This document shows positions 262 through 62,417 of a DNA stretch of 64,000 nt, one piece after another. The position numbers were made by a program, and so were the translations under genes. The first letter of the stretch is position 1; each line of letters begins with the position of its first letter. The stretch spans positions 24,841 through 88,840 of the IMG/VR virus record IMGVR_UViG_2541047117_000001. One strand, 5' to 3'. The notes below the pieces were generated by a model, which was given only the letters and a program-made list of their open reading frames with translations, was not told the origin of the DNA and ran no database searches. This stretch comes from a virus. Taxonomy: Duplodnaviria; Heunggongvirae; Uroviricota; Caudoviricetes.

Positions 262-282
262 TTCATTATTTTTTACACTTGT
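262..282 (-). promoter_or_regulatory. conserved repeated element (minus-strand consensus TACAAGTGTAAAAAATAATGAA), copy 1
   Basis: near-exact match; followed by a leader hairpin 251..283. Confidence 0.6.
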
Positions 283-291
283 TGTTAAAAA

Positions 292-2040
292 TTAAAAGCT
301 CTTAGCCACTCGCTCACGAATCTCTTGTAAGCTTTCGTCACGATGCAGTTGACCATTGAAGAATACCTGCTCTAATTGGTCTTTGCCGAAGTAGCTTACT
401 TGCTGTTCCTTGTTTAAGCCATCAATTAATTTCAATTCGCCATCTTCTTCGATTACTACTACTCGACCTTTTTGAGATTTCTTCGTACCATCATCTGTTT
501 TCGGGTCTTTGTAGATTAATTTTTCTTCGCCATTAATCACTGCATACGTAGCCTTCATAGCAAATCCGAACGTGTCTCGTGTATTAAACTGGTATGTATA
601 TGAACCGATACCGAACACTACGTTAGTAGATGCGAAACCTTTATCTGCAAGACGTTTACAAATAGTCTTACAACGCTCTAATGTGATTGCATCTCCATAA
701 ATTGCTCCGATACAAGGTGCTAATACTTTGTATCCTTGCTCTGTAACAGTTCCACCAAAAATGTTCCAAAGTGCTTCAATTAATCCTAAATCTGCAACAC
801 TTGGAGTGAACTCTTCAAAGCGTTTTACTTTGTCTTCACAAATGTAATAGAATCGCTTGTCGTGACGGTCATACTCAACTTCGATTTCTAATTCATAATA
901 TTTACCATCATACTTAAATTGCCCTGAGATTTCAGTATCTCCATGTTCACCATGTGGAGTATCTTCACGCAATTCCTCCAATAGAGATTCATAGAAGTCC
1001 TGTTTAGCCTCTTCTAAGTTGCTTACATATTTTGAACCTGTAAGGTCAGGAATGTGAGCGCCACAAAGAATATCTTCAGGAATACCACTGTCAGGTCGGA
1101 TAACAACTTTACCATCACGGTTTTCAATTACTTCTTTCAGTCGTGGAATAATCTCACCGACAATGTTCCAAAAGTCCCATGTGTCAGAAACGATAGATAC
1201 AAAGCCTTTTGGGTAAACCTCTGTAATCATACGCTTGAATACTTCATACTCATTTTGACCATTCGCACACATTACTGAATGCTCTGTAGCAGGAATACTC
1301 GTTCCTACAAGTTCTTTCTCAATGTTTGCATTGTAGAACTGCTCCAAGTATAAGATTGCAGGGACAGTATCCGTTCCTACGAATGATAACAAGTGACCTG
1401 CTCCACTTTTCTGTGCTGATTGTAAAGAACTCATTCCACGCATTGAGAAATCGTGTCCTTGGAATACAACACCGTCAGTAGTTCCAACTGTCTTCATAGC
1501 GTACTCATTTAAAATCTTACGGTACTGCAACGCAATTGAAGCAGAAGTCATCCCTTGCCAAATCTCAGTGCTAAGTAATGTTTCCAAGTAATTAGTAATC
1601 CAAAAGAACTTTGGCATCGTATTTTCAATAGTCATCACTGGAACTTTCATTGGTGCTAATGTACCTTCTTTTAAAGCTTTGATTCGTACTGGTAAATATC
1701 CTAAATCATGAAGCTCGGCAATGTGAGTTGTATCAGGATTCTCTTCGCCTAAGCAGAATTTGATAACTCGTGCGTACTCTGCTAAGACAACTTCTTTCTT
1801 ACGTGCAAAGAAGTATTTGTTAAAGTAGCCGATTAAGAACTCCTTGATGAATGATTGAATCTCAAATACTACTACCTTATCAATCATAGGCATATGCTTA
1901 TTTGAACGTGGTGTCATAGTTGAATAGATTGCTTCTGTACCTTTTGGATACTGTGGGCGATGAGATAGTTTGTAGAAATCGCACAGTAAAGTTGGTGGAA
2001 GAAAGTTTTCCGTTTCAGTTGAATGAATAAAATCTGTCAT
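292..2040 (-). CDS. nadV: nicotinamide phosphoribosyltransferase family protein (NAMPT/NadV-like; could instead be a Namat-type ADPR-PP:nicotinamide transferase)
   Basis: 582 aa with the NAMPT signatures GTDTVPAI and IRPDSG; carries a ~100-aa insertion relative to canonical ~490-aa NAMPT. Confidence 0.85.
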   Translation of the reverse strand: MTDFIHSTETENFLPPTLLCDFYKLSHRPQYPKGTEAIYSTMTPRSNKHMPMIDKVVVFEIQSFIKEFLIGYFNKYFFARKKEVVLAEYARVIKFCLGEENPDTTHIAELHDLGYLPVRIKALKEGTLAPMKVPVMTIENTMPKFFWITNYLETLLSTEIWQGMTSASIALQYRKILNEYAMKTVGTTDGVVFQGHDFSMRGMSSLQSAQKSGAGHLLSFVGTDTVPAILYLEQFYNANIEKELVGTSIPATEHSVMCANGQNEYEVFKRMITEVYPKGFVSIVSDTWDFWNIVGEIIPRLKEVIENRDGKVVIRPDSGIPEDILCGAHIPDLTGSKYVSNLEEAKQDFYESLLEELREDTPHGEHGDTEISGQFKYDGKYYELEIEVEYDRHDKRFYYICEDKVKRFEEFTPSVADLGLIEALWNIFGGTVTEQGYKVLAPCIGAIYGDAITLERCKTICKRLADKGFASTNVVFGIGSYTYQFNTRDTFGFAMKATYAVINGEEKLIYKDPKTDDGTKKSQKGRVVVIEEDGELKLIDGLNKEQQVSYFGKDQLEQVFFNGQLHRDESLQEIRERVAKSF

Positions 2041-2055
2041 AATTATTAGCCCCTT

Positions 2056-2556
2056 TTAACCTTCGTATTTATAAATTGTTACACCGTAATCCTTGAAAAT
2101 ATCTTGAATCATTGGATACACAACGTTATCCCAGTCACCGTTAGCTAGACCGCATCCTAGATTGTATGGGATAGCAATTGATATCCCTAATGCGCTAGCA
2201 TCATCTCTAAGTACTGCTAAACCTTTTCGTAATGCTTCATAATTTGTGTATAAAACATTTTCTCGTCCATAGTTTAATTGACCAAAAATATTCACTACAT
2301 ACTCGTATTTATCCTCAGGCTTACTGTTTTCGTCTCGAAGATATACAGCATGAATACTTCCAAGTAAATCTTGTGGACGTTTACCGTGACATTGTGCTTG
2401 ATACATTCTATACACTTCGGGGTGTTTAGCTCTAATCTGCTTAGCTAATCCACTTCCCATCACGCCTTGGCAATTTACTTGTTGTACAATGACTTGTTCT
2501 GTTGCTTCTAGTAAGTTACCCTCTACAATTCCAATCATAGTAATGGTCGCACCCAC
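2056..2556 (-). CDS. macro domain (ADP-ribose binding/processing) protein
   Basis: 166 aa; VQQVNCQGVMGSGLAKQI resembles the MacroD VNAAN..GGGV core; translationally coupled between the NAMPT-like and Prs-like genes. Confidence 0.7.
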   Translation of the reverse strand: MGATITMIGIVEGNLLEATEQVIVQQVNCQGVMGSGLAKQIRAKHPEVYRMYQAQCHGKRPQDLLGSIHAVYLRDENSKPEDKYEYVVNIFGQLNYGRENVLYTNYEALRKGLAVLRDDASALGISIAIPYNLGCGLANGDWDNVVYPMIQDIFKDYGVTIYKYEG

Positions 2557-3344
2557 AATCTGTCGTCGTACTCTTCTTCATTTAAGATGCTGTCAGTTGT
2601 AAAGATTTTATCAATCAAATCAGTCTTTAACAGTTCACCCTTGTAAATAGAGTTCTCACAGTGAGTAACTACTAGATAGATTCTAGAAGCCCCTAATTTT
2701 TTTAACTCTGTAGCACTTCGTAGGAATGTACCACCGAATGAGCAAAGGTCATCCACAATAATTGCTGTAAATCCTGCGCCATCAACTTTACCCATCACTT
2801 CAAGACTCTCGATATTTCCGCTATCGAAATCACGTTGTTTATGACCTACGAGGTGACGGTACTTTTTAGCGGACTTGTAACGTTTAGATGCACCTGCATC
2901 GGGGAAGAAGACATAATCCGCTTCCTCATCAAACCCAACAATTTCAATCGCATCCTTTAAGATTTGCTCAGAGTAATCAATAACCTCGCATCGGTCTAAT
3001 AGAGCAGGTGTTACATCTGAGTGAGCTTCATAAACATAGACTTTCTTGAATTTCAACTTGTTAATGAAGTTTGCAACATCCTTTAGAGTGAATGCAGAAA
3101 CACCTTCGACTCTATCCATACGGCTGTAAGGCATGTACATAATCTTCAATTCTGCATTTAAGCCCATGTTTTCTAAGTAGTTTTTAACAAACATTAATCT
3201 GATTAAATCTCCATCTGTTTCATATTTGAACATGATGGTATTTTGAGTAGGATGAGCATTGGCTTTAATAAGCTTTGCATCCACTTTGGTTTCACCATTT
3301 GGAAACTCTGGAAAATCAAGTCTTGCACCATTAATTTTAATCAT
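2535..3344 (-). CDS. prs: ribose-phosphate pyrophosphokinase family protein (Prs-like; could instead be an Adps-type ADPR pyrophosphate synthetase)
   Basis: 269 aa; type I PRTase PRPP-binding loop IIVDDLCSFGGT; GGAGAGGG RBS; conserved motif 15 nt upstream. Confidence 0.7.
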   Translation of the reverse strand: MIKINGARLDFPEFPNGETKVDAKLIKANAHPTQNTIMFKYETDGDLIRLMFVKNYLENMGLNAELKIMYMPYSRMDRVEGVSAFTLKDVANFINKLKFKKVYVYEAHSDVTPALLDRCEVIDYSEQILKDAIEIVGFDEEADYVFFPDAGASKRYKSAKKYRHLVGHKQRDFDSGNIESLEVMGKVDGAGFTAIIVDDLCSFGGTFLRSATELKKLGASRIYLVVTHCENSIYKGELLKTDLIDKIFTTDSILNEEEYDDRLWVRPLL

Positions 3345-3358: not shown

Positions 3359-3380
3359 TTCATTATTTTTTACACTTGTA
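3359..3380 (-). promoter_or_regulatory. conserved repeated element, copy 2
   Basis: exact consensus, 15 nt before the prs-like start. Confidence 0.65.
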
Positions 3381-4148: not shown

Positions 4149-4436
4149 TTAGCTTGCCTCACTTACCTCTTCAACTTTTTGCATCACTGCAATCCATTTT
4201 TGATTGAACATCGCACCTTCTCCGCTCCTCATCTTGAGTCTAGTTGGTTTGAGTCCATCTTCTTTAAAACTGTATATCTTACCGCTATTGGCTACTTCGA
4301 AGATTGGTCTAATGCATTCATATCCTCTTCCTTCTAGCTCAATAACACGTTTAACACACTCAAGCTTATCCCCACCAGTGACGGTGATTCTAAAAGGTTG
4401 GTCTTTATCCTTATGGTTGGTCGCCATTTCATACAT
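4149..4436 (-). CDS. hypothetical protein
   Basis: 95 aa; three tandem copies of the conserved motif lie upstream. Confidence 0.5.
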   Translation of the reverse strand: MYEMATNHKDKDQPFRITVTGGDKLECVKRVIELEGRGYECIRPIFEVANSGKIYSFKEDGLKPTRLKMRSGEGAMFNQKWIAVMQKVEEVSEAS

Positions 4437-4438: not shown

Positions 4439-4461
4439 TTTTATTATTTTTTACACTTGTA
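4439..4461 (-). promoter_or_regulatory. conserved repeated element, copy 3a
   Basis: first of three tandem copies at 4439..4599. Confidence 0.6.
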
Positions 4462-4504
4462 TGTAATTTTTAAAGTTCACCCGCTTGTGAACTTCTTTAT
4501 ATTA

Positions 4505-4525
4505 TCATTAATTTTTACACTTGTC
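4505..4525 (-). promoter_or_regulatory. conserved repeated element, copy 3b (variant)
   Basis: GACAAGTGTAAAAATTAATGA. Confidence 0.5.
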
Positions 4526-4577: not shown

Positions 4578-4599
4578 TTCATTATATATTACACTTGTA
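4578..4599 (-). promoter_or_regulatory. conserved repeated element, copy 3c (variant)
   Basis: TACAAGTGTAATATATAATGAA. Confidence 0.5.
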
Positions 4600-5163: not shown

Positions 5164-5595
5164 TTATTCCTCCTCTTCGGACATTTCACAAGCATCTCCA
5201 TAACCTTCCCAGTTATCTACACCCATTGCTTCTAGACAATTTAAGAAGTGTTGGCTCTCTAGTAATCCTTCATATTCTCCTTTAGAGATGGTTGCTGTCT
5301 TAACATTGCCCTTATTCTCTTTGTACAGCTCTACTAACTCCTCACGGCTCTTGCCTAGCAATCCTTGTGTAAACTTAAATAGTTCCCAGTCGGGGAAGTC
5401 GTCATTTCGACAGAAATTACATGTCCCACTATCGTCAATGGTTTCCTGTGTTTCCTCATCAATCTCTTCTCTGAATCCTTCTGCTTTTGCACACTTGTCA
5501 GAACACCAATCATTTCCACATGGACAGCCTACATAATAGCCACAGTCAGCGAAAGTATCCTCACATTTGTTACAACATAAATAATCTACACCCAT
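5164..5595 (-). CDS. Cys-rich hypothetical protein (probable metal-binding)
   Basis: 143 aa; many CxxC pairs and an acidic C-terminal tail; conserved motif upstream. Confidence 0.5.
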   Translation of the reverse strand: MGVDYLCCNKCEDTFADCGYYVGCPCGNDWCSDKCAKAEGFREEIDEETQETIDDSGTCNFCRNDDFPDWELFKFTQGLLGKSREELVELYKENKGNVKTATISKGEYEGLLESQHFLNCLEAMGVDNWEGYGDACEMSEEEE

Positions 5596-5612: not shown

Positions 5613-5634
5613 TTCATTATTTTTTACACTTGTA
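5613..5634 (-). promoter_or_regulatory. conserved repeated element, copy 4
   Basis: exact consensus; abuts the dnaE stop codon. Confidence 0.65.
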
Positions 5635-5644: not shown

Positions 5645-8600
5645 TTAATCCCTTACAAGCTTCTTACAGTGAGTGATGTATGAGTCGTACTCATCAATCT
5701 TCACCCATTTACCATCTACTTTACGGCTCTTCTGACGCAACTCTGTATCTAAGAGCTTGATAGTATCTCCTACTTCTAGAGCAGGGTTACCCATACCATC
5801 AAAGTAGTGAACTTTCTTCATCTTCATAGGTACTTCTTGTCCAGTTCTCACTTGGTATAAAGTAATAACTGGTGTGTATTTTGTATTAACATCTACTACA
5901 ACATAGAATGAAGGCTTCACATTCGGCTTCTTAAATGTTGAGTATCCTAAATACTCCTTCTCAAAGCTAATCTGCTCGAATAAATCTAAAGGCGGAAACT
6001 CTAGAGATTTAATGATTTGAATCTCCTCAATTAACAATCCAATACGTTTAACTTTTGTATTAGCCTTATGAGTTTTACTGTATCGGTTCTTACCTTTATA
6101 CACTAATTCTGCAATCTTCAATAACTCCTCAGGTGTTCCATATTCACTAAAGAAGTTCAATCGAATCAAGATATCAAGCTGTTTCGAGTTAACAGATGTT
6201 CTCTCCATGATGTCGATGAATAGCTTTAGGATTGGCTCATCAACTGTTAACACTTCGTCACCCACTAGAATACTTGCCGTATCCTCTTGGTGAGCAATAT
6301 CATACAGCTCATTTGCAATACGCTCATTTAAGAACTTAACAGATTTCAATCCTTTATAGATTGTCTTCGTATTCTTATCAGGTGAATAAGAGCTTAAAGA
6401 TTTACCGAAATGAATCGGAGCAACCTTGATTCCAAATTGGTCAAGCTCTTTCATAATCTTGGCTGTCATAACTGTATCATCTTGATATAGATTCAGAACA
6501 ACCGTGTAATATTCAAGTGGATATTCTGCTTTCAAGTAAGCTCCATAGATTGAATCTAGTGCTACTGATAAGGCATGTGATGCGTTAAATCCATATCCAA
6601 CTGCATCCTCAATGATTTTCCATACCTTTAGAGCTTGTTCATGACTACCTGTTTTCTCAACGAATCCATTGATGAACTTGTCATGGATAGGCTCAATTAC
6701 ACCTTCTACCTTCTTGGAAATGGCTTTTAGGAGTCCATAGGTGACGTCCTCACTAAAGCCTGCGAATACCAGTGCTGACATGATGTTCTCCTGATAGAGT
6801 ACAAAGTTATCACTCTCTTTAAGGATTTCATCAAAAGCAGGAATCCCATATGAGAACGGCTGTCGATTTAAGAATACATCTTTCATAGATGCAAACGATG
6901 GTCGAATCGCTGATACCCATGCGGATAACTCACGGATGCCCTTTGGCATATATCGCTTAACTTGAGGTGTTCCACTATCTGTTCCTGCTTGGTTCAGTGT
7001 AGCGGTTAATCCTTTCTCATATAACTCCCATACTTTAGGGTTATTTTCTACTAACTTAGTTAGTTCACGAATATCGGGAATTGGTGCGCCAATTAGCTCA
7101 AACGTTTCTGCAATAATCCGCCAAACACTTACTGTTAAGAAGTCATTCTTTAGAAATTTCCATACATCTGACGTGTATGAATCTATAACTGCACACATCT
7201 CAGTTCCAACTTTGATAACTCCAACCTCTTCTGAAATCGGCTTATTTAGTAGCAAGAATGCACATGGATGAGGTGATACAGAATCAATTACTCCAACAAA
7301 TCGGTTAGCTTCTTCAATTAAGTCTTTCCATTGTGGATGATTCTCATAGTCCTCAAGATTCTTCGCTACATCGTTGTATTCACTCAGCTTCATGCCTCGT
7401 GAACGACATAAGTTACGGAATGAGGATGAACGCTTCATTGTGCCGAAAGCAGTCATGTAGTAGACATTATCTTCACCAAGGATTTCTTTACATGCCTCTG
7501 CGAACGGTGTCGAGTCAGCAGTATTAAAATCAATATCAGGAAGTGATTTTGTCTCAAGGATACGTGACTTGGACATGAAACGTGTTGGATACAGCGTAAC
7601 AGGAGCATCAACTCTATCAATCTCTGTGAATCCTAATAACTTATTCAAGTAGAATGATGGTGCAGAACCACGACCTGTACGGGTTAAGACTCCACCTTTT
7701 TCTTTTGCTAGTTTGATTCCTTTATAGTTCAGTAGGAAGTAATCTTCCATTTTCGTAGTTTCAATGATATCCATCTCAAACTTAATCGCTTCAATGTATT
7801 CTGCATGGTGACTAACTGGGATGTGCTGTTTATCCTTGTTCCACTCTTTCTGAACAATCTTCTTGAGCTTATTTACCTTCTCTTTATGTGATAGATGAGG
7901 GTAAATCGTAGGCATCTTAATATCCTTATTCAGTACAATCTCTTCAAAGTCATCTACAATACATGTATTCTGCAAGGCTTGTGTGACCTGTTCCTGTGTG
8001 AATACGCCTTGTGCATCATAACGCTCATATAATGTCTCTGAGCTTGGATAATCTAAGATGAATCCATCTTCATCATCATAGAAGATTCCTTTACCCTGTA
8101 GGAGTAAATCACGATACTTAGCATCTTCGGGATAGATATAATGCGTATCATTAGCATGTACTAATGGAATATTATATTTCTCGTGGAATGCTAAAATCTT
8201 TTCGTTGTATGCTTTCTGTACTGGGTGAACGTGAGGTTGAATCTCTAGATAGAAATTATCACCGAAGTACTTATGACATTTGCAAATGAAGCAGTCAGCA
8301 TATTCGCTGTCATACTTATTAACTGGACTCGCCACACATGTTGATGTGACAACTACATCTTTCGGATTCAATGAGAATAATAACTCTTCATCAATACGTG
8401 GCTTGTAGTAATAGCCTGTCTTATTTGCTTCTGACATAATACTAATCAACTGCTTCATACCTCGCTCATTACGAGCCATAACTAATAGATGGGTATTCGT
8501 CTTATCTTTCTCGAAGCGGTTCTTAACGTAATAGAACTCGATTCCAAAGATGTATTTTAATCCGTATTTCTTAGCTACATCATAGTATTCAAAAATATTT

Positions 8601-8794
8601 CCTGCATATCCATGTTCAACAGTAGATAATGTTTTGTGTCCTAGCTCCACTGCACGCTTAGCGATATCTTCGGGCTTGATAATACAATCGACCGTAAAGA
8701 TGTTGCTGTAGTGAGTGTGTTTGTGCCAGTTCTCATATCTAATATCGAAATTTGTAAGGACATTTCTATGTTCCACAAGTCTCACTAGCATCAC
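5645..8794 (-). CDS. dnaE: DNA polymerase III alpha subunit (DnaE-like, PHP domain)
   Basis: 1049 aa; N-terminal PHP histidines (HTHYSNIF, VEHGY); DnaE-like size and architecture; conserved motif immediately upstream. Confidence 0.85.
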   Translation of the reverse strand: MMLVRLVEHRNVLTNFDIRYENWHKHTHYSNIFTVDCIIKPEDIAKRAVELGHKTLSTVEHGYAGNIFEYYDVAKKYGLKYIFGIEFYYVKNRFEKDKTNTHLLVMARNERGMKQLISIMSEANKTGYYYKPRIDEELLFSLNPKDVVVTSTCVASPVNKYDSEYADCFICKCHKYFGDNFYLEIQPHVHPVQKAYNEKILAFHEKYNIPLVHANDTHYIYPEDAKYRDLLLQGKGIFYDDEDGFILDYPSSETLYERYDAQGVFTQEQVTQALQNTCIVDDFEEIVLNKDIKMPTIYPHLSHKEKVNKLKKIVQKEWNKDKQHIPVSHHAEYIEAIKFEMDIIETTKMEDYFLLNYKGIKLAKEKGGVLTRTGRGSAPSFYLNKLLGFTEIDRVDAPVTLYPTRFMSKSRILETKSLPDIDFNTADSTPFAEACKEILGEDNVYYMTAFGTMKRSSSFRNLCRSRGMKLSEYNDVAKNLEDYENHPQWKDLIEEANRFVGVIDSVSPHPCAFLLLNKPISEEVGVIKVGTEMCAVIDSYTSDVWKFLKNDFLTVSVWRIIAETFELIGAPIPDIRELTKLVENNPKVWELYEKGLTATLNQAGTDSGTPQVKRYMPKGIRELSAWVSAIRPSFASMKDVFLNRQPFSYGIPAFDEILKESDNFVLYQENIMSALVFAGFSEDVTYGLLKAISKKVEGVIEPIHDKFINGFVEKTGSHEQALKVWKIIEDAVGYGFNASHALSVALDSIYGAYLKAEYPLEYYTVVLNLYQDDTVMTAKIMKELDQFGIKVAPIHFGKSLSSYSPDKNTKTIYKGLKSVKFLNERIANELYDIAHQEDTASILVGDEVLTVDEPILKLFIDIMERTSVNSKQLDILIRLNFFSEYGTPEELLKIAELVYKGKNRYSKTHKANTKVKRIGLLIEEIQIIKSLEFPPLDLFEQISFEKEYLGYSTFKKPNVKPSFYVVVDVNTKYTPVITLYQVRTGQEVPMKMKKVHYFDGMGNPALEVGDTIKLLDTELRQKSRKVDGKWVKIDEYDSYITHCKKLVRD

Positions 8795-8797: not shown

Positions 8798-8819
8798 TTC
8801 ATTATTTTTTACACTTGTT
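8798..8819 (-). promoter_or_regulatory. conserved repeated element, copy 5
   Basis: AACAAGTGTAAAAAATAATGAA, directly upstream of dnaE. Confidence 0.6.
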
Positions 8820-9043: not shown

Positions 9044-9262
9044 TTAATAAGCGTGGCGCAACTCTTTCTCAAAAGCAGAAATCTCAACATAGTCAAATTT
9101 ACCATTAGCAAACGGATGCTTTTCAACAGACTTCAACTGAAACTGCAACAATCCATTCTCTACGCTAACCTTACTTTTTAAAGTGATACCAACGATTTCA
9201 TAGAGAATATCATCATCGCCACCACGTAATATAACTTCATCACCTTTTTGAAACTTTAACAT
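9044..9262 (-). CDS. hypothetical protein
   Basis: 72 aa; GAGGTG RBS; conserved motif upstream. Confidence 0.45.
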   Translation of the reverse strand: MLKFQKGDEVILRGGDDDILYEIVGITLKSKVSVENGLLQFQLKSVEKHPFANGKFDYVEISAFEKELRHAY

Positions 9263-9279: not shown

Positions 9280-9300
9280 TTCATTATTTTTTACATTTGA
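9280..9300 (-). promoter_or_regulatory. conserved repeated element, copy 6
   Basis: TCAAATGTAAAAAATAATGAA; overlaps the last codons of tdk. Confidence 0.55.
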
Positions 9301-9872
9301 GAGGTGGCTTGGAAAGAGTTATAGCATTCACGACAAATACTACGATAACTCTCTTCGAAACCGACTTGAACCACTTCTCCGTGGAACACTGGTCTACTGT
9401 TAAGTAATCGCATGTTTCGGATTGCTTTGTTCGTACAATAGATGCACACGTTAGGCATATCAGAAATTGTATCAGCATTCTCAATTAATGCTTTAGAGCC
9501 TTCAAATAGAACTCCTCTGAAATCAACTAGCAGTCCATAACTGTACACATCAATCTTCAATTCATCAACGATGCTTACTAATTCTAGTACTTGCTCTGCT
9601 GTTAAGAACTGAGCCTCATCAACAAAGATATAAAGCGGACGATGCTTTTTCGCTAATTCAAACATCTTACCCTTCTCTTCTCCACCAACTAATGTTGCAG
9701 GGATTTCCGTGTCCAATGCTCGTGATTTAACTGCATCTCCATCTCGTGTATCTAATCTTGGCTTGAATACAAGAACCTCTTTCTGTTGTCCTTGTAAGCT
9801 GAAAACTCGCATGATAAGTTCTGCTGATTTTCGACCATTCATTGTTGTGTGGATATACTGTAATTCAGCCAT
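9291..9872 (-). CDS. tdk: thymidine kinase
   Basis: TK fold with a C-terminal CxxC...CxxC zinc ribbon; start placed at MAELQY (ATG 9872) after a GAGGAGAG RBS. Confidence 0.8.
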   Translation of the reverse strand: MAELQYIHTTMNGRKSAELIMRVFSLQGQQKEVLVFKPRLDTRDGDAVKSRALDTEIPATLVGGEEKGKMFELAKKHRPLYIFVDEAQFLTAEQVLELVSIVDELKIDVYSYGLLVDFRGVLFEGSKALIENADTISDMPNVCIYCTNKAIRNMRLLNSRPVFHGEVVQVGFEESYRSICRECYNSFQATSQM

Positions 9873-9887: not shown

Positions 9888-9918
9888 CATTATATTATCA
9901 TTATTTATTACACTTGTA
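9888..9918 (-). promoter_or_regulatory. conserved repeated element, copy 7 (variant with duplicated AATAATG half)
   Basis: TACAAGTGTAATAAATAATGATAATATAATGA, upstream of tdk. Confidence 0.5.
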
Positions 9919-12091: not shown

Positions 12092-12106
12092 ACGTCCTCC
12101 ATGTAT

Positions 12107-52566: not shown

Positions 52567-53295
52567 TTATGCGACATTTTCAATCGAGTGATTGAACACT
52601 TTATTAATCTTCGTCATGCCATGATGTATTTGCATTGAGATAGTTGCCCTGCTCTTCCCTAGCATCTCTCCAATTTCTGTTGGAGTATATCCTTGCAATC
52701 GAAGTTCAATGCAGGTTCTTTGCGTTTCAGATACTACAGCTAATCGTTGGGAAAGCCCTGTTTTGAGACCTGCTAATTCCATATCATGATGAGCGCTCTC
52801 ATCACTCAGTGTATCAATTAGCTTCAAGTTCTCTCCTTCTTTACTGTTACCAACTGTTGTCTCAATGCTCATTACTGTCATGTCCATAAATGACAAAGCT
52901 CTTTTCATAACCTCATCTGACGCATCAAATGTCTTTTGAATCTCTTCTAGAGTTTTCTTCCCTCGATGCTTACGCATGTATTTCGCAATCCGTGTAACCT
53001 CATAGCTTACTCGAACACCTTTGTATGTACTTCGTATTGCATTATAGATTTCCGTTCGGATATATCTAACGGCTATCGTTGAGAGTTTGCCTTTTGATTC
53101 ATCATAAGCATCTAATGACTTCATCCACCCAATGATTCCAAATTGCGCTAAATCATCAAATGTATAACCATGTGTCTTTTCATAATAAGAATAGTAAGTA
53201 AAATATTTACGTATCGTATCAGCTACTAATTTATATCCGTTTTCGGGCAATGTTAAATCTTTTTCTTCTATAGCTTGTAATTCATCTATTTGCAT
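52567..53295 (-). CDS. sigma-70-family RNA polymerase sigma factor
   Basis: 242 aa; region-2-like FGIIGWMKSLDAYDESKG...IRTEIYNAIR and region-4 HTH TPTEIGEMLGKSRATISMQIHHG. Confidence 0.65.
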   Translation of the reverse strand: MQIDELQAIEEKDLTLPENGYKLVADTIRKYFTYYSYYEKTHGYTFDDLAQFGIIGWMKSLDAYDESKGKLSTIAVRYIRTEIYNAIRSTYKGVRVSYEVTRIAKYMRKHRGKKTLEEIQKTFDASDEVMKRALSFMDMTVMSIETTVGNSKEGENLKLIDTLSDESAHHDMELAGLKTGLSQRLAVVSETQRTCIELRLQGYTPTEIGEMLGKSRATISMQIHHGMTKINKVFNHSIENVA

Positions 53296-53310: not shown

Positions 53311-53332
53311 TTCATTATTTTTTACATTTGTA
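53311..53332 (-). promoter_or_regulatory. conserved repeated element, copy 25a, upstream of the sigma factor gene
   Basis: TACAAATGTAAAAAATAATGAA. Confidence 0.6.
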
Positions 53333-53388
53333 TCATATCAAATGGGGAATAGCATGTCAACTACCAATGCATAGAAAAAGGAGATAAG

Positions 53389-53410
53389 TTCATTATTTTT
53401 TACACTTATC
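53389..53410 (-). promoter_or_regulatory. conserved repeated element, copy 25b
   Basis: GATAAGTGTAAAAAATAATGAA. Confidence 0.55.
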
Positions 53411-54790: not shown

Positions 54791-55906
54791 TCAGCCGATT
54801 AATTCCTTAACAGCTTCCACACCTTGTTTTAATACGTCTACATCTTCTACACTTGTGTAGTCAGTAGTACCTAGAGTCTTCTCAAAGATTCCTTTTAATT
54901 TACGCTTTTGAACTGGTTTCAGAGTACCAATGCTTTCTTTCAACCAAGCGTGCATTTCTTCTGCTGTCATTTCAGCCTTTTGAGTTTTAGCAAACTTCTC
55001 AGCTTGACGCTCAGTCTCTACTTTTTGCTCAGCTTTTGCTTTCTCTACAGCTTTTTCATCGTTGTCATATTCTTTTAGAACTGCATTCTCAAATGCTTCT
55101 AAGAACTCATCAACACTGTTGTTGATTTTGTCAGGCATATGACGGAAACGTGAACCACAGATTACATTACCTTCTGAACGGAATCGTAGGAAACGTTCTG
55201 ATTTAGCGACACCCTTTTTAGCTGTCGTTACTAAGTCACCATAGATGATTAAGTCACTTTCACGAAGAACGATATCCGATGTTTTACCTAAGCAGTTAAG
55301 CGTAGTTAAATCATAAGAAGAACCATCACGTTGCTCAACCTTCTTTGTCTTACTGTGACCAATGATGAATACTCCAAATCCTGCTTTCTTTAAACGGTCG
55401 ATTTGCTCATAGATTACATCTGCAACTAGGTTGTAACCTTTACCGTATGCGATATCAGAAATATCTTCAATTTTCGCAGTAGACTTAATCTTCTGTTTTT
55501 TAATGATGTGTTTCTCCGCTAAGTCCTCAAGTGCTGTAATTGTATCAATAACAATTAACTTGTATGGAATTGTCTTACGGTTCTCGATTAACTCATCAAT
55601 AACCTCAACGAATCCTCTTGCGTCATTGTCAGTCTTCTCTTCTTTTACTTCTTCATCTTCGTCCTCATCATCTTCTTCTACATACTCGAAAACAGAGATT
55701 GGAAGTGCGTGGATTCCATTTAAAGCTTTGTAACCTACTTCTGTACCAAGTAGTAACATCTTGCTTAAATCTCCACCGTAATACTTCATAGCTAAATCAT
55801 ATAGAAATGTTGTTTTACCAAATTTACTTGGTGCAAACAGACACATAAGATACTGTTCTAATTCTGCTTTTACTTTATTCGGGTTTAATGCATGTAAAAA
55901 TGACAT
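54791..55906 (-). CDS. RecA-fold P-loop ATPase (phage AAA/Sak4-like)
   Basis: 371 aa; Walker A APSKFGKTTF; Walker B LIVIDTI; acidic linker. Confidence 0.5.
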   Translation of the reverse strand: MSFLHALNPNKVKAELEQYLMCLFAPSKFGKTTFLYDLAMKYYGGDLSKMLLLGTEVGYKALNGIHALPISVFEYVEEDDEDEDEEVKEEKTDNDARGFVEVIDELIENRKTIPYKLIVIDTITALEDLAEKHIIKKQKIKSTAKIEDISDIAYGKGYNLVADVIYEQIDRLKKAGFGVFIIGHSKTKKVEQRDGSSYDLTTLNCLGKTSDIVLRESDLIIYGDLVTTAKKGVAKSERFLRFRSEGNVICGSRFRHMPDKINNSVDEFLEAFENAVLKEYDNDEKAVEKAKAEQKVETERQAEKFAKTQKAEMTAEEMHAWLKESIGTLKPVQKRKLKGIFEKTLGTTDYTSVEDVDVLKQGVEAVKELIG

Positions 55907-55922: not shown

Positions 55923-55946
55923 TTCAATTATTTTTTATATTTGTGG
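55923..55946 (-). promoter_or_regulatory. conserved repeated element, copy 26a (variant)
   Basis: CCACAAATATAAAAAATAATTGAA. Confidence 0.4.
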
Positions 55947-55985
55947 AGAAGAAAAGGATATACTTCTCCCCTCCATGTATGTAAT

Positions 55986-56007
55986 TCATTATTTTTTACA
56001 CTTGTAA
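55986..56007 (-). promoter_or_regulatory. conserved repeated element, copy 26b
   Basis: exact consensus; a 7-bp-stem hairpin at 55944..55968 lies between the two copies. Confidence 0.65.
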
Positions 56008-56022: not shown

Positions 56023-57081
56023 TTACCACAGGTCGTCCCCTTCTTCACTGTCACCAGTGTCAGCAAATGGATTGTCATCGCCAGTGTCCTCAGCCTTTTC
56101 TTCTTCTACTGGTAGAACGAAGTCTTCTTCTTTGTACTTAGCAGTAACAAATGACTCAGCTTCTACACCTTCAATTTGAAGTTCGTTTGTGTACTCTCGT
56201 GAAGTACGTTTCTCAAGAGATTTATGCTTCTCTTTACCTACTGTAGCAAACGGGTTCTTCTTATCTACTGGTTTTGCATCTGTTTCCTCAGCCTCTACGA
56301 ACTCCACTCGGTTTACTACTTTACCGTAAACTTTCATGAATGCACCGAATTTAAGCTTCTTGAACGCCTTGATAAGACCTTCTAAGTCCTTGTCGTTGCC
56401 ATCAATGATGAATGAACCGTTAGCAAATTTACCGCCATATCCAATTGTACGACCAAGTACTTTGGCTTTCTTCGTTTCACGGTCTACTTCCATGCCTACG
56501 AATACCATTTCTTGTTCAAATACTGCTGTCTCTTCGAAATTTTCTGCCTCGAAATCAATGTCTTTCTTTAGTAAACCTAGAGATTTCATGACAAAACGTT
56601 TTTGCTCTTTCTTCTCGCCATCTTTCTCGTACTCAGAGATTTCAACCTCACCGTTTAAGTAGATGTGCATTCCATCTTGAAGCTCATTGAAGATTTCTTC
56701 AACTGCATCATAAGGATGTAGATTTTCAGTGATAATCTTTCCTTCTTCGTCACGTTGTAAGCCAACTCGAACACCGAATAGGTGATAACCGTCAGGTAAG
56801 TTGTCACGGCTTTCAAATGGGAAGCGCTTACCTTCTTTCTTCTTCATATTGTAAGCGTATACTTCATCTTGCTCCATACCGAATAGTTCAACAGGTACTT
56901 CATTCTTTTCGCCCTCAGCATCATTTGTGATTACTGTGAAACGTAAGCTCTTATAAGGCTTTCCTGAGCCTGTTTCTCCCTCTTTAAAAGCATGGTCGCT
57001 ATCCATACGAGATACAACACCTTGTAATTTGATTGCACTCTTAGTTTGTTCTAATACTACTTCTTCCTTCTTCTTCGCCAT
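56023..57081 (-). CDS. putative single-stranded DNA-binding protein (tandem OB-folds?) with an acidic C-terminal tail
   Basis: 352 aa; acidic tail ...DTGDSEEGDDLW ending in an aromatic residue; sits in the replication module. Confidence 0.4.
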   Translation of the reverse strand: MAKKKEEVVLEQTKSAIKLQGVVSRMDSDHAFKEGETGSGKPYKSLRFTVITNDAEGEKNEVPVELFGMEQDEVYAYNMKKKEGKRFPFESRDNLPDGYHLFGVRVGLQRDEEGKIITENLHPYDAVEEIFNELQDGMHIYLNGEVEISEYEKDGEKKEQKRFVMKSLGLLKKDIDFEAENFEETAVFEQEMVFVGMEVDRETKKAKVLGRTIGYGGKFANGSFIIDGNDKDLEGLIKAFKKLKFGAFMKVYGKVVNRVEFVEAEETDAKPVDKKNPFATVGKEKHKSLEKRTSREYTNELQIEGVEAESFVTAKYKEEDFVLPVEEEKAEDTGDDNPFADTGDSEEGDDLW

Positions 57082-57099: not shown

Positions 57100-57121
57100 T
57101 TCATTATTTTTTATACTTGTA
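57100..57121 (-). promoter_or_regulatory. conserved repeated element, copy 27
   Basis: TACAAGTATAAAAAATAATGAA, upstream of the SSB-like gene; a degenerate half-copy lies at 57189..57207. Confidence 0.6.
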
Positions 57122-57278
57122 AAGAAAACAAAAACCCCTAATTTATTTATTAGAGGTTGAAAGAAGCCCTCCACACAATAAATAACTTTTCATTATTTAT
57201 TACGTTTAAAGGGCTTTTCCTTAACAACTGCATTCATTATATCATTCATTTGTAAGCATTGTCAAATTGGCTTTTATC

Positions 57279-57970: not shown

Positions 57971-57995
57971 TTCATTATTTATAACTTCTGTTGCA
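57971..57995 (-). promoter_or_regulatory. degenerate copy of the repeated element in the 57668..58069 regulatory intergenic region
   Basis: TGCAACAGAAGTTATAAATAATGAA. Confidence 0.3.
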
Positions 57996-58068: not shown

Positions 58069-58341
58069 TCATTCCTCACCTTCTTCCGCTGTTGGCTTTA
58101 ATTCGAAGATATCTTTAATATCTATCTCTAAAGCTTCACAAATTACATATGCATAAGTTAGCTTCCACAGGTTTTGTTTATTAATTAGAGCAATGAACCC
58201 CCTATACTTGATATGGATACCGTATTCATCAACAATCTTCTCCCATAGTTGTTTCGCATTCATATCTTTTCTTTCTAGATACATTTTGAATTTATCTTTA
58301 TTCATCCTTGCTTCGAGTTTATGCTCAACTTTATAACCCAT
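58069..58341 (-). CDS. XRE-family helix-turn-helix transcriptional regulator
   Basis: 90 aa; C-terminal HTH-like LTYAYVICEALEIDIKDIFEL. Confidence 0.5.
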   Translation of the reverse strand: MGYKVEHKLEARMNKDKFKMYLERKDMNAKQLWEKIVDEYGIHIKYRGFIALINKQNLWKLTYAYVICEALEIDIKDIFELKPTAEEGEE

Positions 58342-58356: not shown

Positions 58357-59373
58357 TTAATTGTCTTGTCCTAAAAAGTCACCATATAATTCTTTTATAT
58401 TTTTAACATTACAATATTTTTTCATTGGATAGAAATTATTAATATCAAATCTAATTGCTATATTTTTATAATCTTCTGTGCTTAGGTAGTACTCGCCTTT
58501 TTCTTCCATTATTTTCTTAGCCATATATAATTGTCCACTTTTTATGATGCTTTTAGTTTTTAATTGAGGATATCCTAAAACTTCACCGATTAAATTAACA
58601 CGTCTATAGATAACAGATTCTTTAATAGCTTGATGATAACTTCCTGTTCTTGTTATAGAAGGACGGAATACATATTCATTATCAACCAATTCAGTAACGG
58701 CACGGATATTTTCCCTTTGCTCCATGTCTCCGTTTTTCTTCCAGTATCTCTTCTCTTGCATAGCTTGTTCTAGCATAAGTACAGTACGAGCATCAACTTC
58801 TGTGAAAGCTCCACCAATATTTAAAGGCACTTTTGTATCTTCTATATCACTATTAAGTCCTTTTTCTTGCATAAATTCTAGAGCCTGTTCTACGTCTGAC
58901 TTTTTCAGTTCTCTAATTTCTATAGCTTTTTCTCCACAAATTCCTTCAAATAATAATCTAATTATTGTTGAGTCTTGATAGTTATAACAATCTGATTCGA
59001 TTTTTAGTAGTTGTTTTTTAGTTATATATAGATTTTTTACATTTTCACTGATATTTTCAAACCATTTAGCGCTAACATCTAGTAGAGGATTATTAGTTTT
59101 TTTGTAGTTATTTTCTACTGCCCATTTCATATACGCTGAAATTACACGACCGTAAACTTCTGTTGCCTGTGCGCTTCCACGTAATTGAATTAAAAGCTCT
59201 TCAATTTCTTCTAATGTAAAATCATATAAATCTTTATTTAGAGTTTCTTCCATTTGTTCAGCTTTGGTGAATATTCTATTGTAGTATGATTTAGTTGTAT
59301 CGTTAGTATAGTTAGTTAAAAATAAGTCTTTTGCAGTTTCACCGTTCTTTAGCTCATCCATTCCGTGAGTCAT
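58357..59373 (-). CDS. hypothetical protein; candidate SPbeta MrpR/YopR-type repressor (recombinase-like fold), low certainty
   Basis: 338 aa and AT-rich; N-terminus faintly resembles an integrase SAM-like domain; no catalytic R..H..R..Y tetrad recognised. Confidence 0.35.
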   Translation of the reverse strand: MTHGMDELKNGETAKDLFLTNYTNDTTKSYYNRIFTKAEQMEETLNKDLYDFTLEEIEELLIQLRGSAQATEVYGRVISAYMKWAVENNYKKTNNPLLDVSAKWFENISENVKNLYITKKQLLKIESDCYNYQDSTIIRLLFEGICGEKAIEIRELKKSDVEQALEFMQEKGLNSDIEDTKVPLNIGGAFTEVDARTVLMLEQAMQEKRYWKKNGDMEQRENIRAVTELVDNEYVFRPSITRTGSYHQAIKESVIYRRVNLIGEVLGYPQLKTKSIIKSGQLYMAKKIMEEKGEYYLSTEDYKNIAIRFDINNFYPMKKYCNVKNIKELYGDFLGQDN

Positions 59374-59559
59374 TTCTTACCACTTCTCCTTTATACCTCT
59401 GTAACTTTGTAATTTCTACTTTACCTGTAACTCAACTGTTTAAATTGGTTTAAGTTGACTATGTTCGTAGTCTATGTATGTGTATGTGTGTGTATGTTCG
59501 CTGACTATTGCCAGCAGTCAAATTATACCATATATAAAATCCATTGCCAATACCAAATT

Positions 59560-59580
59560 TCCTTATTTTTTCCATTTGTC
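59560..59580 (-). promoter_or_regulatory. degenerate copy of the repeated element upstream of the 338-aa candidate regulator gene
   Basis: GACAAATGGAAAAAATAAGGA. Confidence 0.3.
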
Positions 59581-60277: not shown

Positions 60278-60493
60278 TAGTTTAATTCTCCTGTTGTAAT
60301 GTAATATTTGTTAAATACATTATAGCAATCAATAAAGTTTACAGTCAATCTGAGTAAATGAGATTCGGTTTATTGTTTTTTGAATGAATCCTTTGATGAT
60401 TATTTTTAGATGCAGGCGAAGCCTATATATTAATTAATTATTAAGGTCTTTTTAAAAGATTTGTTTTTTTAAAAGAATATTGTCTTATTATAC

Positions 60494-60750
60494 TATCACC
60501 GTGTGATAGGCGGTCGTGTATCATGTGGTGATAGGTGGGTACTATCATGCTGTGATAGGCGGAAATCCCGTGTATCATTTCATGATAGGCGGAAATTGTG
60601 GATAATTTCAAAAAATCTGTGGATAAGTCGCCTATCATATGGTGATAGGCGTCGCCTATCATGTGGTGATAGGCAGTGTATCACACGGTGATAGGCGGGA
60701 ATCGTTTCGTGTATCATGTGGTGATAGGCAGTGTATCATACCGTGATAGG
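60494..60750. repeat. iteron array: nine 17-bp palindromic units TATCA-N5-TGATAGG(C) spaced ~23-32 bp, interrupted by two DnaA boxes
   Basis: units at 60494, 60519, 60543, 60573, 60633, 60657, 60679, 60712, 60734; each has inverted arms (GCC)TATCA / TGATAGG(C). Confidence 0.7.
60597..60626. promoter_or_regulatory. two direct perfect DnaA boxes (TGTGGATAA = TTATCCACA) 21 bp apart inside the iteron array
   Basis: 60597..60605 and 60618..60626. Confidence 0.6.
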
Positions 60751-60803
60751 CGGAAGGATTATTTTTCTGAAAAAATAAAAAAGCAAGAGGAAAATCCCCT
60801 TGC

Positions 60804-61811
60804 TTAAATTTCTACGATATATTCATCGTGTGTTTTGAATATGTATGTTGTATCTTCTACGTTGAATCCGATTTGCTTTCCGACCTCTTCTGCGATAATT
60901 GTTTTAAACTTATCTTGAACGTGTGTTTTAGCAAAGTCATGAGCGCATAACACGTAGACTGAATTTTTCTCTGAATCTAAGGCAAGTACAGCGTCCTTAA
61001 ACCAAACATCGAATGATGGCTTAGCAATTCTCTCTTGAAGAGATGTGAGAATCTTCTCTCCTGCTTCGATGCACTCAGGAGCGATTTTTTCTCTTATGTA
61101 TGTTGCTTTATTTTCTTCTTCAATCTTTTCTTTGGCTTCACGAATCTGAGATTTGCTTCTAAATAACTCAGCGTTTTCAATTAACCCTTCGATTACTTTG
61201 CTGTTTTTTAGCTCATTAGTCGCAATGTCAATATCCTTATAATCTTCCATATATGTATCATGGTCTTTTTTTAGTTTAGCAGGTAGCTCTTCATAGAGTT
61301 CATTAGTTAATAGAGGTACAAACCTTCTAATCTTAAACAGAGGACTCACAGAGCGGTTGTTATCCTTTGTATCACGTCTGTTGAAGATGACAATAAAGTT
61401 ATGCTCTTCTAATGTCTTTAGACATCCTTTTACAAAGTTCTTACTCTTCTTCATCTTCAATGCGATAGTGTCTATGTCAGGGAAGCAGAAGTCTTTTTTG
61501 CCGTAAGCATGACGTCTTAGATGGATATACACTTGAATGCATTCTGAACCTAATACAGCTCCCCAAAAGTCTAGTAGATAGTTTTGAATCATAGTGAAGT
61601 CTTCTGCGTCCAATGTAGGAACACATTCACCAATCGAGTTAAGATTCAATGCTTTAATCTCTTCGAACTCTACAATACGTTGCTCTCTAATTGGTACACG
61701 TCTTGAGCCATTTCTAGTATTTTGAGTTGTGAATTTTCCTGTATGAACCTCTCTATAGTGAAGATATCGTTCATTTTTATATCCTGCATATAAATCTTTG
61801 TTATTTTCCAT
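60804..61811 (-). CDS. putative replication initiator (Rep-like winged-helix protein)
   Basis: 335 aa; sits 40 bp from an iteron array with two DnaA boxes; function inferred from context only. Confidence 0.45.
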   Translation of the reverse strand: MENNKDLYAGYKNERYLHYREVHTGKFTTQNTRNGSRRVPIREQRIVEFEEIKALNLNSIGECVPTLDAEDFTMIQNYLLDFWGAVLGSECIQVYIHLRRHAYGKKDFCFPDIDTIALKMKKSKNFVKGCLKTLEEHNFIVIFNRRDTKDNNRSVSPLFKIRRFVPLLTNELYEELPAKLKKDHDTYMEDYKDIDIATNELKNSKVIEGLIENAELFRSKSQIREAKEKIEEENKATYIREKIAPECIEAGEKILTSLQERIAKPSFDVWFKDAVLALDSEKNSVYVLCAHDFAKTHVQDKFKTIIAEEVGKQIGFNVEDTTYIFKTHDEYIVEI

Positions 61812-62057
61812 TTGTGTTTCCTCCTAAATGCGCTGTTTAGGAGCTTCACTCATATTTACTTATCCCATTGTTTATGATATTATAAACATACAAATCTAAT
61901 GTTAACGAGACTTGCATCTACTCATTTGAGTGAAGCTCCATTTTTGGGATACTTCGTAGATACAATCTCTCCAATGCCCATTCATAAAGTTTTGGTTGGT
62001 CGCCATTTCAACTTTGAGAGTGGGTTTTTTCATGCTCTTTTTTACCTCTTAAATCAA

Positions 62058-62357
62058 TCATGATGCTATATTCAACTCATAAACGTTGAAATTCTGTCTA
62101 CCATAGTAACGCATAACTTTCAAAAAACCCTTTTCTTCTAGTGATTTAATGAATTTAATGACGCTTCTGCGAGTTAAAGAGCATTTATGAGCGATTTCTT
62201 CATATGCCATTTCGATACTGCTTCCATTGCCTTCCACACATAGAGTCAATAAAACTAGCTTTTCGTTAGCAGTCAACTCTTCTGTTCGAATAATATTGTT
62301 TGCAATGTGTGTCATGTATCTCACCTCAACCTTCTTTAATAAGTGAATTTGATGCAC
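62058..62357 (-). CDS. winged-helix DNA-binding protein
   Basis: 99 aa with a wHTH (EIAHKCSLTRRSVIKFIKSLEEKGFL); degenerate motif upstream. Confidence 0.45.
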   Translation of the reverse strand: MHQIHLLKKVEVRYMTHIANNIIRTEELTANEKLVLLTLCVEGNGSSIEMAYEEIAHKCSLTRRSVIKFIKSLEEKGFLKVMRYYGRQNFNVYELNIAS

Positions 62358-62390
62358 CTATTCAACAAAAAAATATGGTGTATTTCAATC

Positions 62391-62417
62391 TTACATTATT
62401 TATTACATTTGTGCAAT
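62391..62417 (-). promoter_or_regulatory. degenerate copy of the repeated element upstream of the wHTH gene at 62058..62357
   Basis: TGCACAAATGTAATAAATAATGTAA. Confidence 0.35.

Follow-up and report, generated by a model that had tools for sequence, protein, structure and literature searches.

In this work, we have used computational approaches to decipher the role of a short DNA element, about 22 bp long, that recurs throughout a 64,000-nucleotide stretch of a tailed-phage genome (hereafter the window; positions 24,841 to 88,840 of the IMG/VR virus record IMGVR_UViG_2541047117_000001). Our analysis makes it fairly probable that the element is the operator of a master repressor of the MrpR/YopR/SroF family, predicted to be the product of the gene at 58357..59373. 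Most likely, the system is not of a new kind, and would be a denser and rearranged version of the SPBRE/MrpR system known from the Bacillus subtilis phage SPbeta, present here in an undescribed lineage of probable Bacillus cereus-group phage-plasmids. A preliminary description of this DNA had offered two readings of the element, as the operator of a global repressor similar to that of SPbeta, which it favoured, or as the promoter read by a phage sigma factor. Each prediction of the first reading that lent itself to computation was borne out, and sequence comparison therefore supports it. All features located below by window coordinates lie on the minus strand.

The repeated element and its placement

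The 22-mer TACAAGTGTAAAAAATAATGAA was matched with three mismatches or fewer at 27 sites, all of them on the minus strand, and 100 dinucleotide-preserving shuffles returned no match. A weight matrix was built from these 27 sites and both strands of the window were scanned with it, as the preliminary description had advised, at thresholds of at least 14 and at least 10 bits. This gave 35 and 38 minus-strand sites, respectively, compared with 0.1 and 0.5 sites in block shuffles, and no site on the plus strand of the window. The recurrence of the element is thus confirmed, and the coordinates first given for its copies were right to within 1 nt (13608 instead of 13607, and 55985 instead of 55986). 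Conservation is confined to a core with sharp edges, element positions 2–22, in which each column is identical in at least 23 of the 27 sites, and the flanks examined (12 nt upstream and 14 nt downstream) hold almost no information; canonical copies have an A at position 22 and carry no information at positions 23–28. The element is therefore contiguous, directional and non-palindromic, spans about 21 bp around a central A6 tract and shows no intrinsic secondary structure. It is the sole motif enriched between the genes of the window; scans of the window gave neither Rfam families nor tRNAs, and the element itself has no Rfam match.

All plausible genes of the window are on the minus strand, so that every copy is co-oriented with transcription, as had been noted at the outset. 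Fully intergenic copies number 33 of the 38, in a window whose non-coding share is only 12% (binomial 1e-25); with this placement and no plus-strand copy, the element is not equally frequent at non-regulatory positions or on the two strands. Since 17 of the 38 copies end 12–19 nt before a start codon, the Shine-Dalgarno (SD) sequence follows directly after the element in these cases; some copies of the tandem arrays stand more than 100 nt from any start codon. The tandem arrays described earlier were recovered (4440/4504/4578, 53311/53389, 55924/55985 and 33818/33914), as were the copies that abut upstream stop codons, for example 10 nt past the stop of dnaE. Two other classes of repeat were considered and rejected: a miniature inverted-repeat transposable element or other mobile repeat, given the length of only 22 bp and the lack of terminal inverted repeats, and iterons, replication sites or Chi-like sites, because 87% of the copies are intergenic and positioned at gene starts.

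The conservation of the copies was further explored in related genomes. A relative 88–95% identical to the window is present as a 153.6-kb IMG/VR contig, and a sister lineage (lineage B, the window belonging to lineage A) is represented by contigs of ~150 kb in B. cereus and Bacillus thuringiensis, with MrpR 49% and sigma 44% identical. A comparison of the window with its ~90%-identical relative gave 97.7% identity for the copies, 80.5% for the 40 nt upstream and 89.8% for the 40 nt downstream. In lineage B the element reads TACAAAYGTAAwwTTTAATwAA and its spacing to the SD sequence is 4–5 nt. One copy (38989..39010; 33.5 bits) lies within the RNA-ligase coding sequence, 127 nt upstream of the PNK/HD gene; the two lineages share its position, nt 980 of 1137, and differ in the codons (ATNVKNNE vs ATNVNFNE, K-N to N-F), which indicates that each copy follows the consensus of its own lineage. 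As judged from these alignments, there is evidence of copies evolving in concert, under selection by a trans-acting factor. Of the 12 exact 21-mer copies in the 153.6-kb relative, 11 are in DNA that can be aligned with the window; for the remaining one (L004) there is no such alignment, and the ORFs (open reading frames) around it, on a look at the sequence with no family search, resemble a guanylate kinase, a RusA-type resolvase and a ligase.

The MrpR-family protein and related elements

The 338-aa ORF at 58357..59373, which had been put forward as a possible equivalent of MrpR/YopR, proved to be a true homologue. It matches both Pfam domains of the family, MrpR_N_CB (PF22822) with 70.8 bits and MrpR_C_cat (PF22823) with 58.1 bits, the cut-off being 27 for each; its identity to SPbeta YopR/MrpR amounts to 30% over 313 aa (full length), and it matches PDB entries 8A0A (MrpR, E 1.5e-22), 8BJ6, 8BJV and 9RD5, with E values in the range 1e-22 to 1e-18. 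In an alignment of 16 family members there is no invariant Arg or His, and the sole invariant C-terminal Tyr is Y329; the absence of invariant Arg and His would be consistent with a loss of recombinase catalysis. Directly downstream of mrpR there is a 90-aa ORF (58069..58341) that matched no family, and the lineage B ORF at the same position has a weak HTH_26 match.

In SPbeta, MrpR binds SPBRE at ten promoter regions, as established by chromatin affinity purification sequencing (ChAP-seq), electrophoretic mobility shift assays and reporter fusions (PMC10516654). The phi3T orthologue SroF is a monomer whose two domains close round a 26-bp box, contacting 24 of the 26 bp, and it reads two consecutive A-tracts, partly by shape (bioRxiv 10.1101/2025.11.27.690993). 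A contiguous and asymmetric block of ~21 bp with an A6 tract is what we would expect here, because a monomeric read-out of 24 bp of the SroF type predicts such a box. In lineage B, positions 12–14 are specified only as 'A or T' and both flanking halves are specific, which fits a shape read-out of the centre. The partial dyad that had been pointed out, ACAnnTGT, is indeed present in the window element, but it is not kept in the sister lineage, where the sequence is ACAAACGT. The dimeric binder that this dyad had been taken to suggest is accordingly not needed, and dimer binding to ACAnnTGT was rejected, since the dyad is lost in lineage B and the MrpR family binds as a monomer.

SPBRE, as extracted from the SPbeta genome, reads tagACAAATACAAA[A/T]AATATGTATATAAT and is a TAGACA-N17-TATAAT sigma-A promoter with a conserved spacer. 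The Bacillus anthracis giant siphophage Tsamsa has, in 50 kb, 23 promoters of the form TTGACA-A[AG]CA[CT]AAAAATTAATGA-TATAAT, all co-oriented with genes. The window consensus agrees with that of Tsamsa at 16 of 22 positions, a score equalled by 11 of 2000 shuffles. Its agreement with SPBRE is 14/22, equalled by 346 of 2000 shuffles and not significant alone, and that with the phi3T box is 12/22, also not significant. The comparison with SPBRE that had been proposed thus reveals no likeness in sequence beyond what shuffles reach, and as the consensus similarity is not above chance, the link to SPBRE rests on the protein, on the anatomy of the element and on the Tsamsa intermediate. Divergence of the box from SPBRE and Phi3TRE is to be expected, given that the boxes are known to be specific to each repressor. 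A single alignment register accommodates both SPBRE and the Tsamsa promoters, and in it the ACA of the element coincides with the final three bases of the -35, and the TG of the element with the extended -10. At the junctions before the yorF-like, sak4-like and nrdI genes, Tsamsa has a sigma-A promoter and the window has the element. The element looks like a descendant of an early sigma-A promoter-operator family, with a conserved spacer, that is seen in Tsamsa and SPbeta; in its canonical copies, unlike in those phages, the TTG of the -35 and the entire TATAAT are gone.

Several further features connect these systems. A homologous recombinase-fold repressor is common to the window, SPBRE/MrpR of SPbeta and Phi3TRE/SroF of phi3T. 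With SPbeta, the window also shares a repeated asymmetric A-tract element upstream of early genes and co-oriented with them, copies at key regulatory genes and at the locus of the repressor itself, and a syntenic replication module (yorF, sak4, helicase, primase, recJ, dnaE and nrd). The two differ in their consensus, ACAAGTGTAAAAAATAATGAA in the window and ACAAATACAAAAAATATGTATA for SPBRE, and in the setting of the copies, most of which lie outside a sigma-A -35/-10 pair in the window, whereas SPBRE is embedded in one. They differ too in the sigma factor of the window phage, for which no homologue was found in SPbeta, and in the host, the window deriving from the B. cereus group, probably in a plasmid state, and SPBRE/MrpR being known from B. 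subtilis SPbeta. The Tsamsa-like giant siphophages (Joanripponvirinae) have in common with the window the ACAAG, the A-tract and the TAATGA within the 16/22, the orientation, the gene junctions and a very short distance between promoter and SD sequence, and they encode an MrpR homologue, 38% identical. In contrast, each Tsamsa copy is a complete promoter, TTGACA-N17-TATAAT, in which the -10 is TG-extended, while those of the window are without TTG and TATAAT; positions 5–9 are variable in Tsamsa and nearly invariant in the window (AGTGT); and the sigma factor of the window phage has no homologue that we could find in the Tsamsa-like phages. Literature searches returned nothing relevant on promoters of Tsamsa-like phages.

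Promoters, the phage sigma factor and other readings

About 12 copies overlap sigma-A promoters, including those of the sigma gene and mrpR, and they do so in four fixed registers. In the first, that of SPbeta and Tsamsa, the element overlaps the -35 and the spacer: this is the case for the variant copies 4504..4525 (TTGACA at position -1, 17-nt spacer, TG-extended TAATAT at position 22), 9897..9918 (TTTACA/17/TAATAT with TG) and 42157..42178. In the second, which also occurs in lineage B, element positions 14–19 are TATAAT and TTGACA lies 18 nt upstream, giving a 12/12 match to the sigma-A consensus in both the variant copy 4578..4599 and the weak copy 57233..57254 (12.1 bits). The third has the element right after the -10, from about -1 to +21. 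It is represented by 53311..53332 (33.5 bits), 15 nt before the ATG of the sigma gene and following the 11/12 sigma-A promoter of that gene (53332..53360; TTGACA/17/TATGAT, with TG), and by two examples in lineage B. In the fourth, the element ends 8–9 nt before the -35, which starts at element position 30–31. Here belong 59559..59580 (18.8 bits), a degenerate copy and candidate autoregulatory site that ends 8 nt before the -35 of the mrpR promoter P2 (TTGGCA/17/TATAAT with TG); 41082..41103 (30.5 bits), where the -35 of an 11/12 promoter starts 9 nt downstream; 33914..33935 (28.2 bits), with a sigma-A-like TTGCCA/17/TACAAT whose -35 starts 8 nt downstream; 23400..23421 (26.2 bits), between a strong intrinsic terminator directly upstream (23437..23461) and a sigma-A-like promoter with its -35 from 8 nt after the element; and the weak copy 57971..57992 (14.0 bits), downstream of the mrpR-HTH operon. 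Copies 33914 and 23400 share the identical linker aaaggtattgc, and the linker of 59559 is similar. The fourth register would place a bound protein at about -65 to -44, the position of an activator or UP element rather than that of a classical repressor. The existence of several registers relative to RNA polymerase points to an independent operator module, unlike a single promoter type. In the 60441..64000 region, consensus sigma-A promoters serve the genes for the partition-protein homologue and the replication initiator, and likewise mrpR, and the element is represented at these genes by degenerate copies only, one of them at 62392..62413 (21.3 bits); this arrangement fits a plasmid-like prophage that keeps its maintenance genes on.

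We propose that in lysogeny, probably in a plasmid state, one repressor monomer would be bound to each of ~35–38 copies. These copies head nearly every lytic early, replication and nucleotide-metabolism gene or operon and reach across the sigma-A promoter of the sigma gene, and the bound repressor would stop transcription by promoter occlusion or by blocking RNA polymerase. The degenerate copies beside the mrpR promoters could allow autoregulation and tune the level of repressor, and rep, par and mrpR, having no strong copies, would stay on from their sigma-A promoters. On derepression, transcription would start from the overlapping sigma-A promoters and probably from the elements too. Within the element, ACAAGTGT may be the operator-type part and AATAAT (positions 14–19) a possible -10 part.

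Some observations weigh against the repressor operator as a full account. The density of copies is 3–4 times that reported for SPbeta, where 10 ChAP-seq peaks are spread over 134 kb, compared with ~38 copies in 64 kb here. The likeness of the consensus to SPBRE and to the phi3T box is within chance for A-rich sequences. For about 17 copies, including most of the perfect ones, there is no recognisable sigma-A-like promoter within -45..+52, and operators of this kind, with no promoter, call for an explanation. In the 64-kb window, the LexA-box consensus tested, GAAC-N4-GTTC, was not found, hence no Sar-type antirepressor promoter, Sar homologues not having been searched for; such an antirepressor gene could be encoded beyond the window. 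Finally, the layout around copy 57100 suggests that transcription is promoted there, which the repressor model alone does not supply.

This last observation leads to the stand-alone copies, which may be compact promoters without a -35, in which AATAAT (14–19) would serve as the -10 and transcription would start ~4 nt past the element; we give slightly less than even weight to this possibility. The copy at 57100..57121 (32.5 bits) is the sole feature between a strong intrinsic terminator directly upstream (57133..57158) and the SD sequence of the yorF-like gene (56023..57081), and lineage B has the same layout, which suggests that the copy has promoter activity of its own. A hairpin of at least -10 kcal/mol in strength stands ahead of 10 of 35 copies, the background frequency being 12.5% of positions, and several copies have a stable hairpin within 1–5 nt downstream, which would form the 5΄ end of a transcript starting there. 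True promoters are found in Tsamsa at the same junctions and at similarly short SD distances, which again counts for promoter activity, and from the two 12/12 hybrid copies it appears that AATAAT at positions 14–19 can serve as a -10. Against such activity, the stand-alone copies have no -35 and no TG at the right distance. The conservation of TAAT, for its part, is already explained by repressor binding, because TAAT is equally conserved in the Tsamsa spacer. In both lineages (57265..57100 in the window; 11960..12125 in the lineage B locus L014), the yorF-like SD sequence is preceded in order by a sigma-A promoter, a transcript of ~80–100 nt, the strong terminator and the element. This short transcript has no Rfam match and could be a small RNA or an attenuator leader; in the window, a weak copy (57189..57210; 15.8 bits) lies inside it, upstream of the terminator.

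A composite of these proposals is more doubtful. The stand-alone copies would be dual units, each combining a -35-less promoter, used by the phage sigma or by sigma-A with a phage factor, with a full site for the monomeric repressor; an ancestral sigma-A promoter-operator would then have been re-wired to the phage sigma, and the copies would also be junctions for cassette swaps.

The phage sigma factor itself (52567..53295) is of the sigma-70 family, with regions 2 and 4, and has superfamily-level matches only, the nearest being of the SigF/SigB/SigG and FliA types. Homologues were found only in lineages A and B, which both have stand-alone elements and amount to two independent lineages only; none was found in SPbeta or in Tsamsa-like phages. 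In a search for more genomes with this sigma, the viral_contigs scan gave only the same 90%-identical relative, and genome_contigs and the PLSDB plasmids gave none. According to the second reading of the preliminary description, the element is the promoter for host RNA polymerase with this phage sigma. Sigma-A would transcribe the sigma gene early, the phage sigma would fire ~35 middle genes, and the repressor would not act directly at the element. What stands of this reading is the co-occurrence of sigma and element, the sigma being restricted to two lineages (44% identical) with hexamer-less elements and the SPbeta and Tsamsa-like phages lacking the sigma and keeping the hexamers. It would also agree with the 11/12 sigma-A promoter of the sigma gene itself, with the replication genes having the element alone in front, with copy 57100 standing alone between terminator and gene in both lineages, with the stable hairpins before 10 of 35 copies, and with the absence of an alternative motif for the sigma in the window. 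The anatomical fit, however, is poor. A two-domain sigma with regions 2 and 4 should need -35 and -10 blocks ~17 bp apart, whereas the element is one 21-bp block with nothing conserved 17 bp to either side. Where a copy abuts the SD sequence, transcription has to start within a few nt of the element end, which leaves no room for a -35 inside the element or a -10 downstream. Neither the conserved spacer with its A-tract nor the four registers relative to sigma-A promoters would be explained by the sigma, whose targets may be late genes outside the window. We regard this reading as unlikely.

Compact promoters are known in other phages, for example the 23-bp promoters of the T7 type, the T4 late promoters (TATAAATA) and the -35-less extended -10 promoters of Thermus phage P23-45. 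Like the element, these occur in many near-identical, co-oriented and intergenic copies just upstream of genes. Unlike in those systems, no single-subunit RNA polymerase was found in the window, and the sole candidate is a two-domain sigma without its bipartite promoter. A YonO homologue was not found in the window, where only the 722-aa ORF at 16972..19140 was compared with SPbeta YonO. YonO homologues are absent from Tsamsa-like phages too, and for this reason YonO is of no help on the role of the sigma. Homologues of MrpR and of YonO are both encoded by Psychrobacillus phage Perkons (L020, 8278..49210). Within these 41 kb, neither strand has a promoter of the form TTGACA/16–18 nt/TATAAT, and an SPBRE-like element was not found by the k-mer method. 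There are ~33 matches to [GAT]ATAATTAA, about two dozen of which are TATAATTAA, some of them after tgatat and directly before an SD sequence; the motif has the look of a promoter family without a -35, with a right half similar to that of the window element. As only the TATAATTAA repeat was found there, and no SPBRE-like element, Perkons speaks neither for nor against a connection of the sigma with the missing hexamers.

A role at the RNA level, as an element of the 5΄ leader that acts as the site of a translational repressor (T4 RegA-like), as a processing site or as an AU-rich translational enhancer, seems very unlikely. The strict strand specificity and co-orientation with genes would suit it, as would the 17 copies that end 12–19 nt before a start codon, the SD spacing of 4–5 nt in lineage B and the Rho RNA-binding-domain protein encoded at 32694..33782. 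However, the related Tsamsa and SPbeta sequences are promoter DNA and precede the start of the transcript, five copies are located before the -35 of the sigma-A promoter closest to them, tandem copies stand more than 100 nt from any start codon, and the element has neither an Rfam match nor intrinsic secondary structure. The protein encoded at 32694..33782 (362 aa) joins a Rho RNA-binding domain to DUF2325, its gene is preceded by three element copies, and it might affect termination or RNA.

The elements also coincide with breakpoints between genomes. Blocks of homology with the relative begin exactly at the first base of four copies (31507, 11268, 41103 and ~3393; loci L005, L006, L008 and L011), and the DNA upstream of these copies is unrelated or inserted, which indicates that the elements mark the 5΄ boundaries of exchangeable gene cassettes. 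In this they are like the T4 PeSL cassettes and the lambdoid 'boundary sequences', repeated regulatory sequences found at the breakpoints of mosaic exchange; unlike PeSL, the element has no stem-loop, and the breakpoints are only four, from one genome pair. That the copies are mainly recombination or cassette-boundary repeats with no direct role in expression is nevertheless the least credible of the readings, since breakpoints at one edge are expected if any repeated regulatory site promotes exchange, and since the fixed position before the SD sequence, the fixed sigma-A registers and the keeping of the copy within the RNA-ligase gene despite the amino-acid changes that this entails would all be left unexplained.

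Individual copies, gene content and significance

Perfect copies of the element are found at six places. The one at 3359..3380 (36.7 bits) is followed by the SD sequence and, 14 nt downstream, by the ATG of the phosphoribosyl pyrophosphate (PRPP)-synthetase-like gene (2535..3344); 5613..5634 is the copy 10 nt past the dnaE stop, and it stands 17 nt before the ATG of 5164..5595; the first base of 11247..11268 is the exact start of a homology block with the 90%-identical relative. The copy at 31486..31507, likewise a homology boundary at its first base, is directly upstream of nrdI-nrdE-nrdF and has a hairpin of -17 kcal/mol before it. That at 45331..45352 is upstream of the recJ-like gene (43673..45292), with a GC-rich hairpin beginning 3 nt downstream, and that at 55985..56006 lies 16 nt past the stop of the yorF-like gene.

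Copies of high score are also found at both ends of genes. Eight nt past the stop of the NAMPT-like gene there is a copy with the sequence AACAAGTGTAAAAAATAATGAA (262..283; 34.1 bits), with a strong hairpin beginning 1 nt downstream; 4440..4461 (33.1 bits) is the third member of its tandem array and lies 12 nt before the ATG of 4149..4436; 8798..8819 (34.1 bits) is directly upstream of dnaE (5645..8794), and 9280..9301 (26.9 bits) is 17 nt before the ATG of 9044..9262. The copy at 13608..13629 (30.3 bits) is within the 3΄ end of ORF 13584..14003 and 16 nt before the ATG of 13409..13591. A copy at 22777..22798 (29.7 bits) is 1 nt past the upstream stop, a hairpin begins 4 nt downstream of that at 26646..26667 (34.3 bits), and 32668..32689 (28.8 bits) is 4 nt past the stop of 32694..33782. 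Further copies lie 14 nt before the ATG of 40233..40814 (40829..40850; 29.8 bits), upstream of 48009..48656 and the DnaB-like helicase gene (48671..48692; 31.2 bits, with a hairpin of -13 kcal/mol before it) and upstream of the sigma-gene promoter (53389..53410; 31.2 bits).

The weaker copies comprise 22693..22714 (19.8 bits), 13 nt before the ATG of 22311..22679; 32555..32576 (17.9 bits), preceded by a hairpin of -19 kcal/mol; 33818..33839 (16.8 bits), upstream of 32694..33782; 42189..42210 (15.6 bits); and 55924..55945 (18.4 bits), 17 nt before the ATG of the Sak4-like AAA_24 gene (54791..55906). A marginal copy in coding sequence, 52438..52459 (10.8 bits), may be a chance match.

The genes of the window encode a partition protein, a replication initiator, the MrpR-like protein, the sigma-70-family factor, a Sak4-like ATPase, a DnaB-like helicase, a primase, RecJ, an RNA ligase with a PNK/HD partner, NrdI, NrdE, NrdF, a DNA ligase, DnaE and proteins of NAD salvage. 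They are arranged in the same order as in the SPbeta early region, between yorF and nrd, and as in Tsamsa; at the nucleotide level, matches to Tsamsa-like phages are only short and distant. A sigma protein identical to that of the window is recorded for a B. cereus contig of 152,852 bp. Judging from the rep and par genes and from the contigs of ~150 kb, the source of the window is probably a temperate phage-plasmid of the B. cereus group. The RNA ligase is of the T4 Rnl1 type and is followed by an AAA_33 kinase/HD phosphatase (37857..39990), an RNA-repair pair of the type directed against anticodon nucleases, which lineage B keeps. Genes of auxiliary metabolism (292..3344 and 23465..24655) code for a NAMPT-like nicotinamide phosphoribosyltransferase, the PRPP-synthetase-like protein and a Na+-dependent nucleoside transporter. 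In lineage B, the stretch from the replication-initiator gene to mrpR contains ~12 palindromes of the CCTATCACAGTATGATAGG type (L014, 9150..9470), which are probably iterons or a centromere; an equivalent array was not seen at the same place in the window.

What does the element mean for these phages? The MrpR and SroF repressors are a recent and unusual class, monomeric, recombinase-fold and DNA-encircling, that has so far been studied only in SPbeta-like phages of B. subtilis. The window suggests that control of the MrpR type governs the lytic programme in a ~150-kb phage-plasmid of the B. cereus group. The Tsamsa-like anthrax phages have repressor homologues, and their conserved early promoters may play the same role. 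With ~38 copies, the window offers a clean natural set of operators from which rules of recognition could be drawn, and its hexamer-less copies would provide a test of operators uncoupled from a canonical promoter, and of the role of the phage sigma. The element is also a usable marker of gene starts and module boundaries when these phages are annotated.

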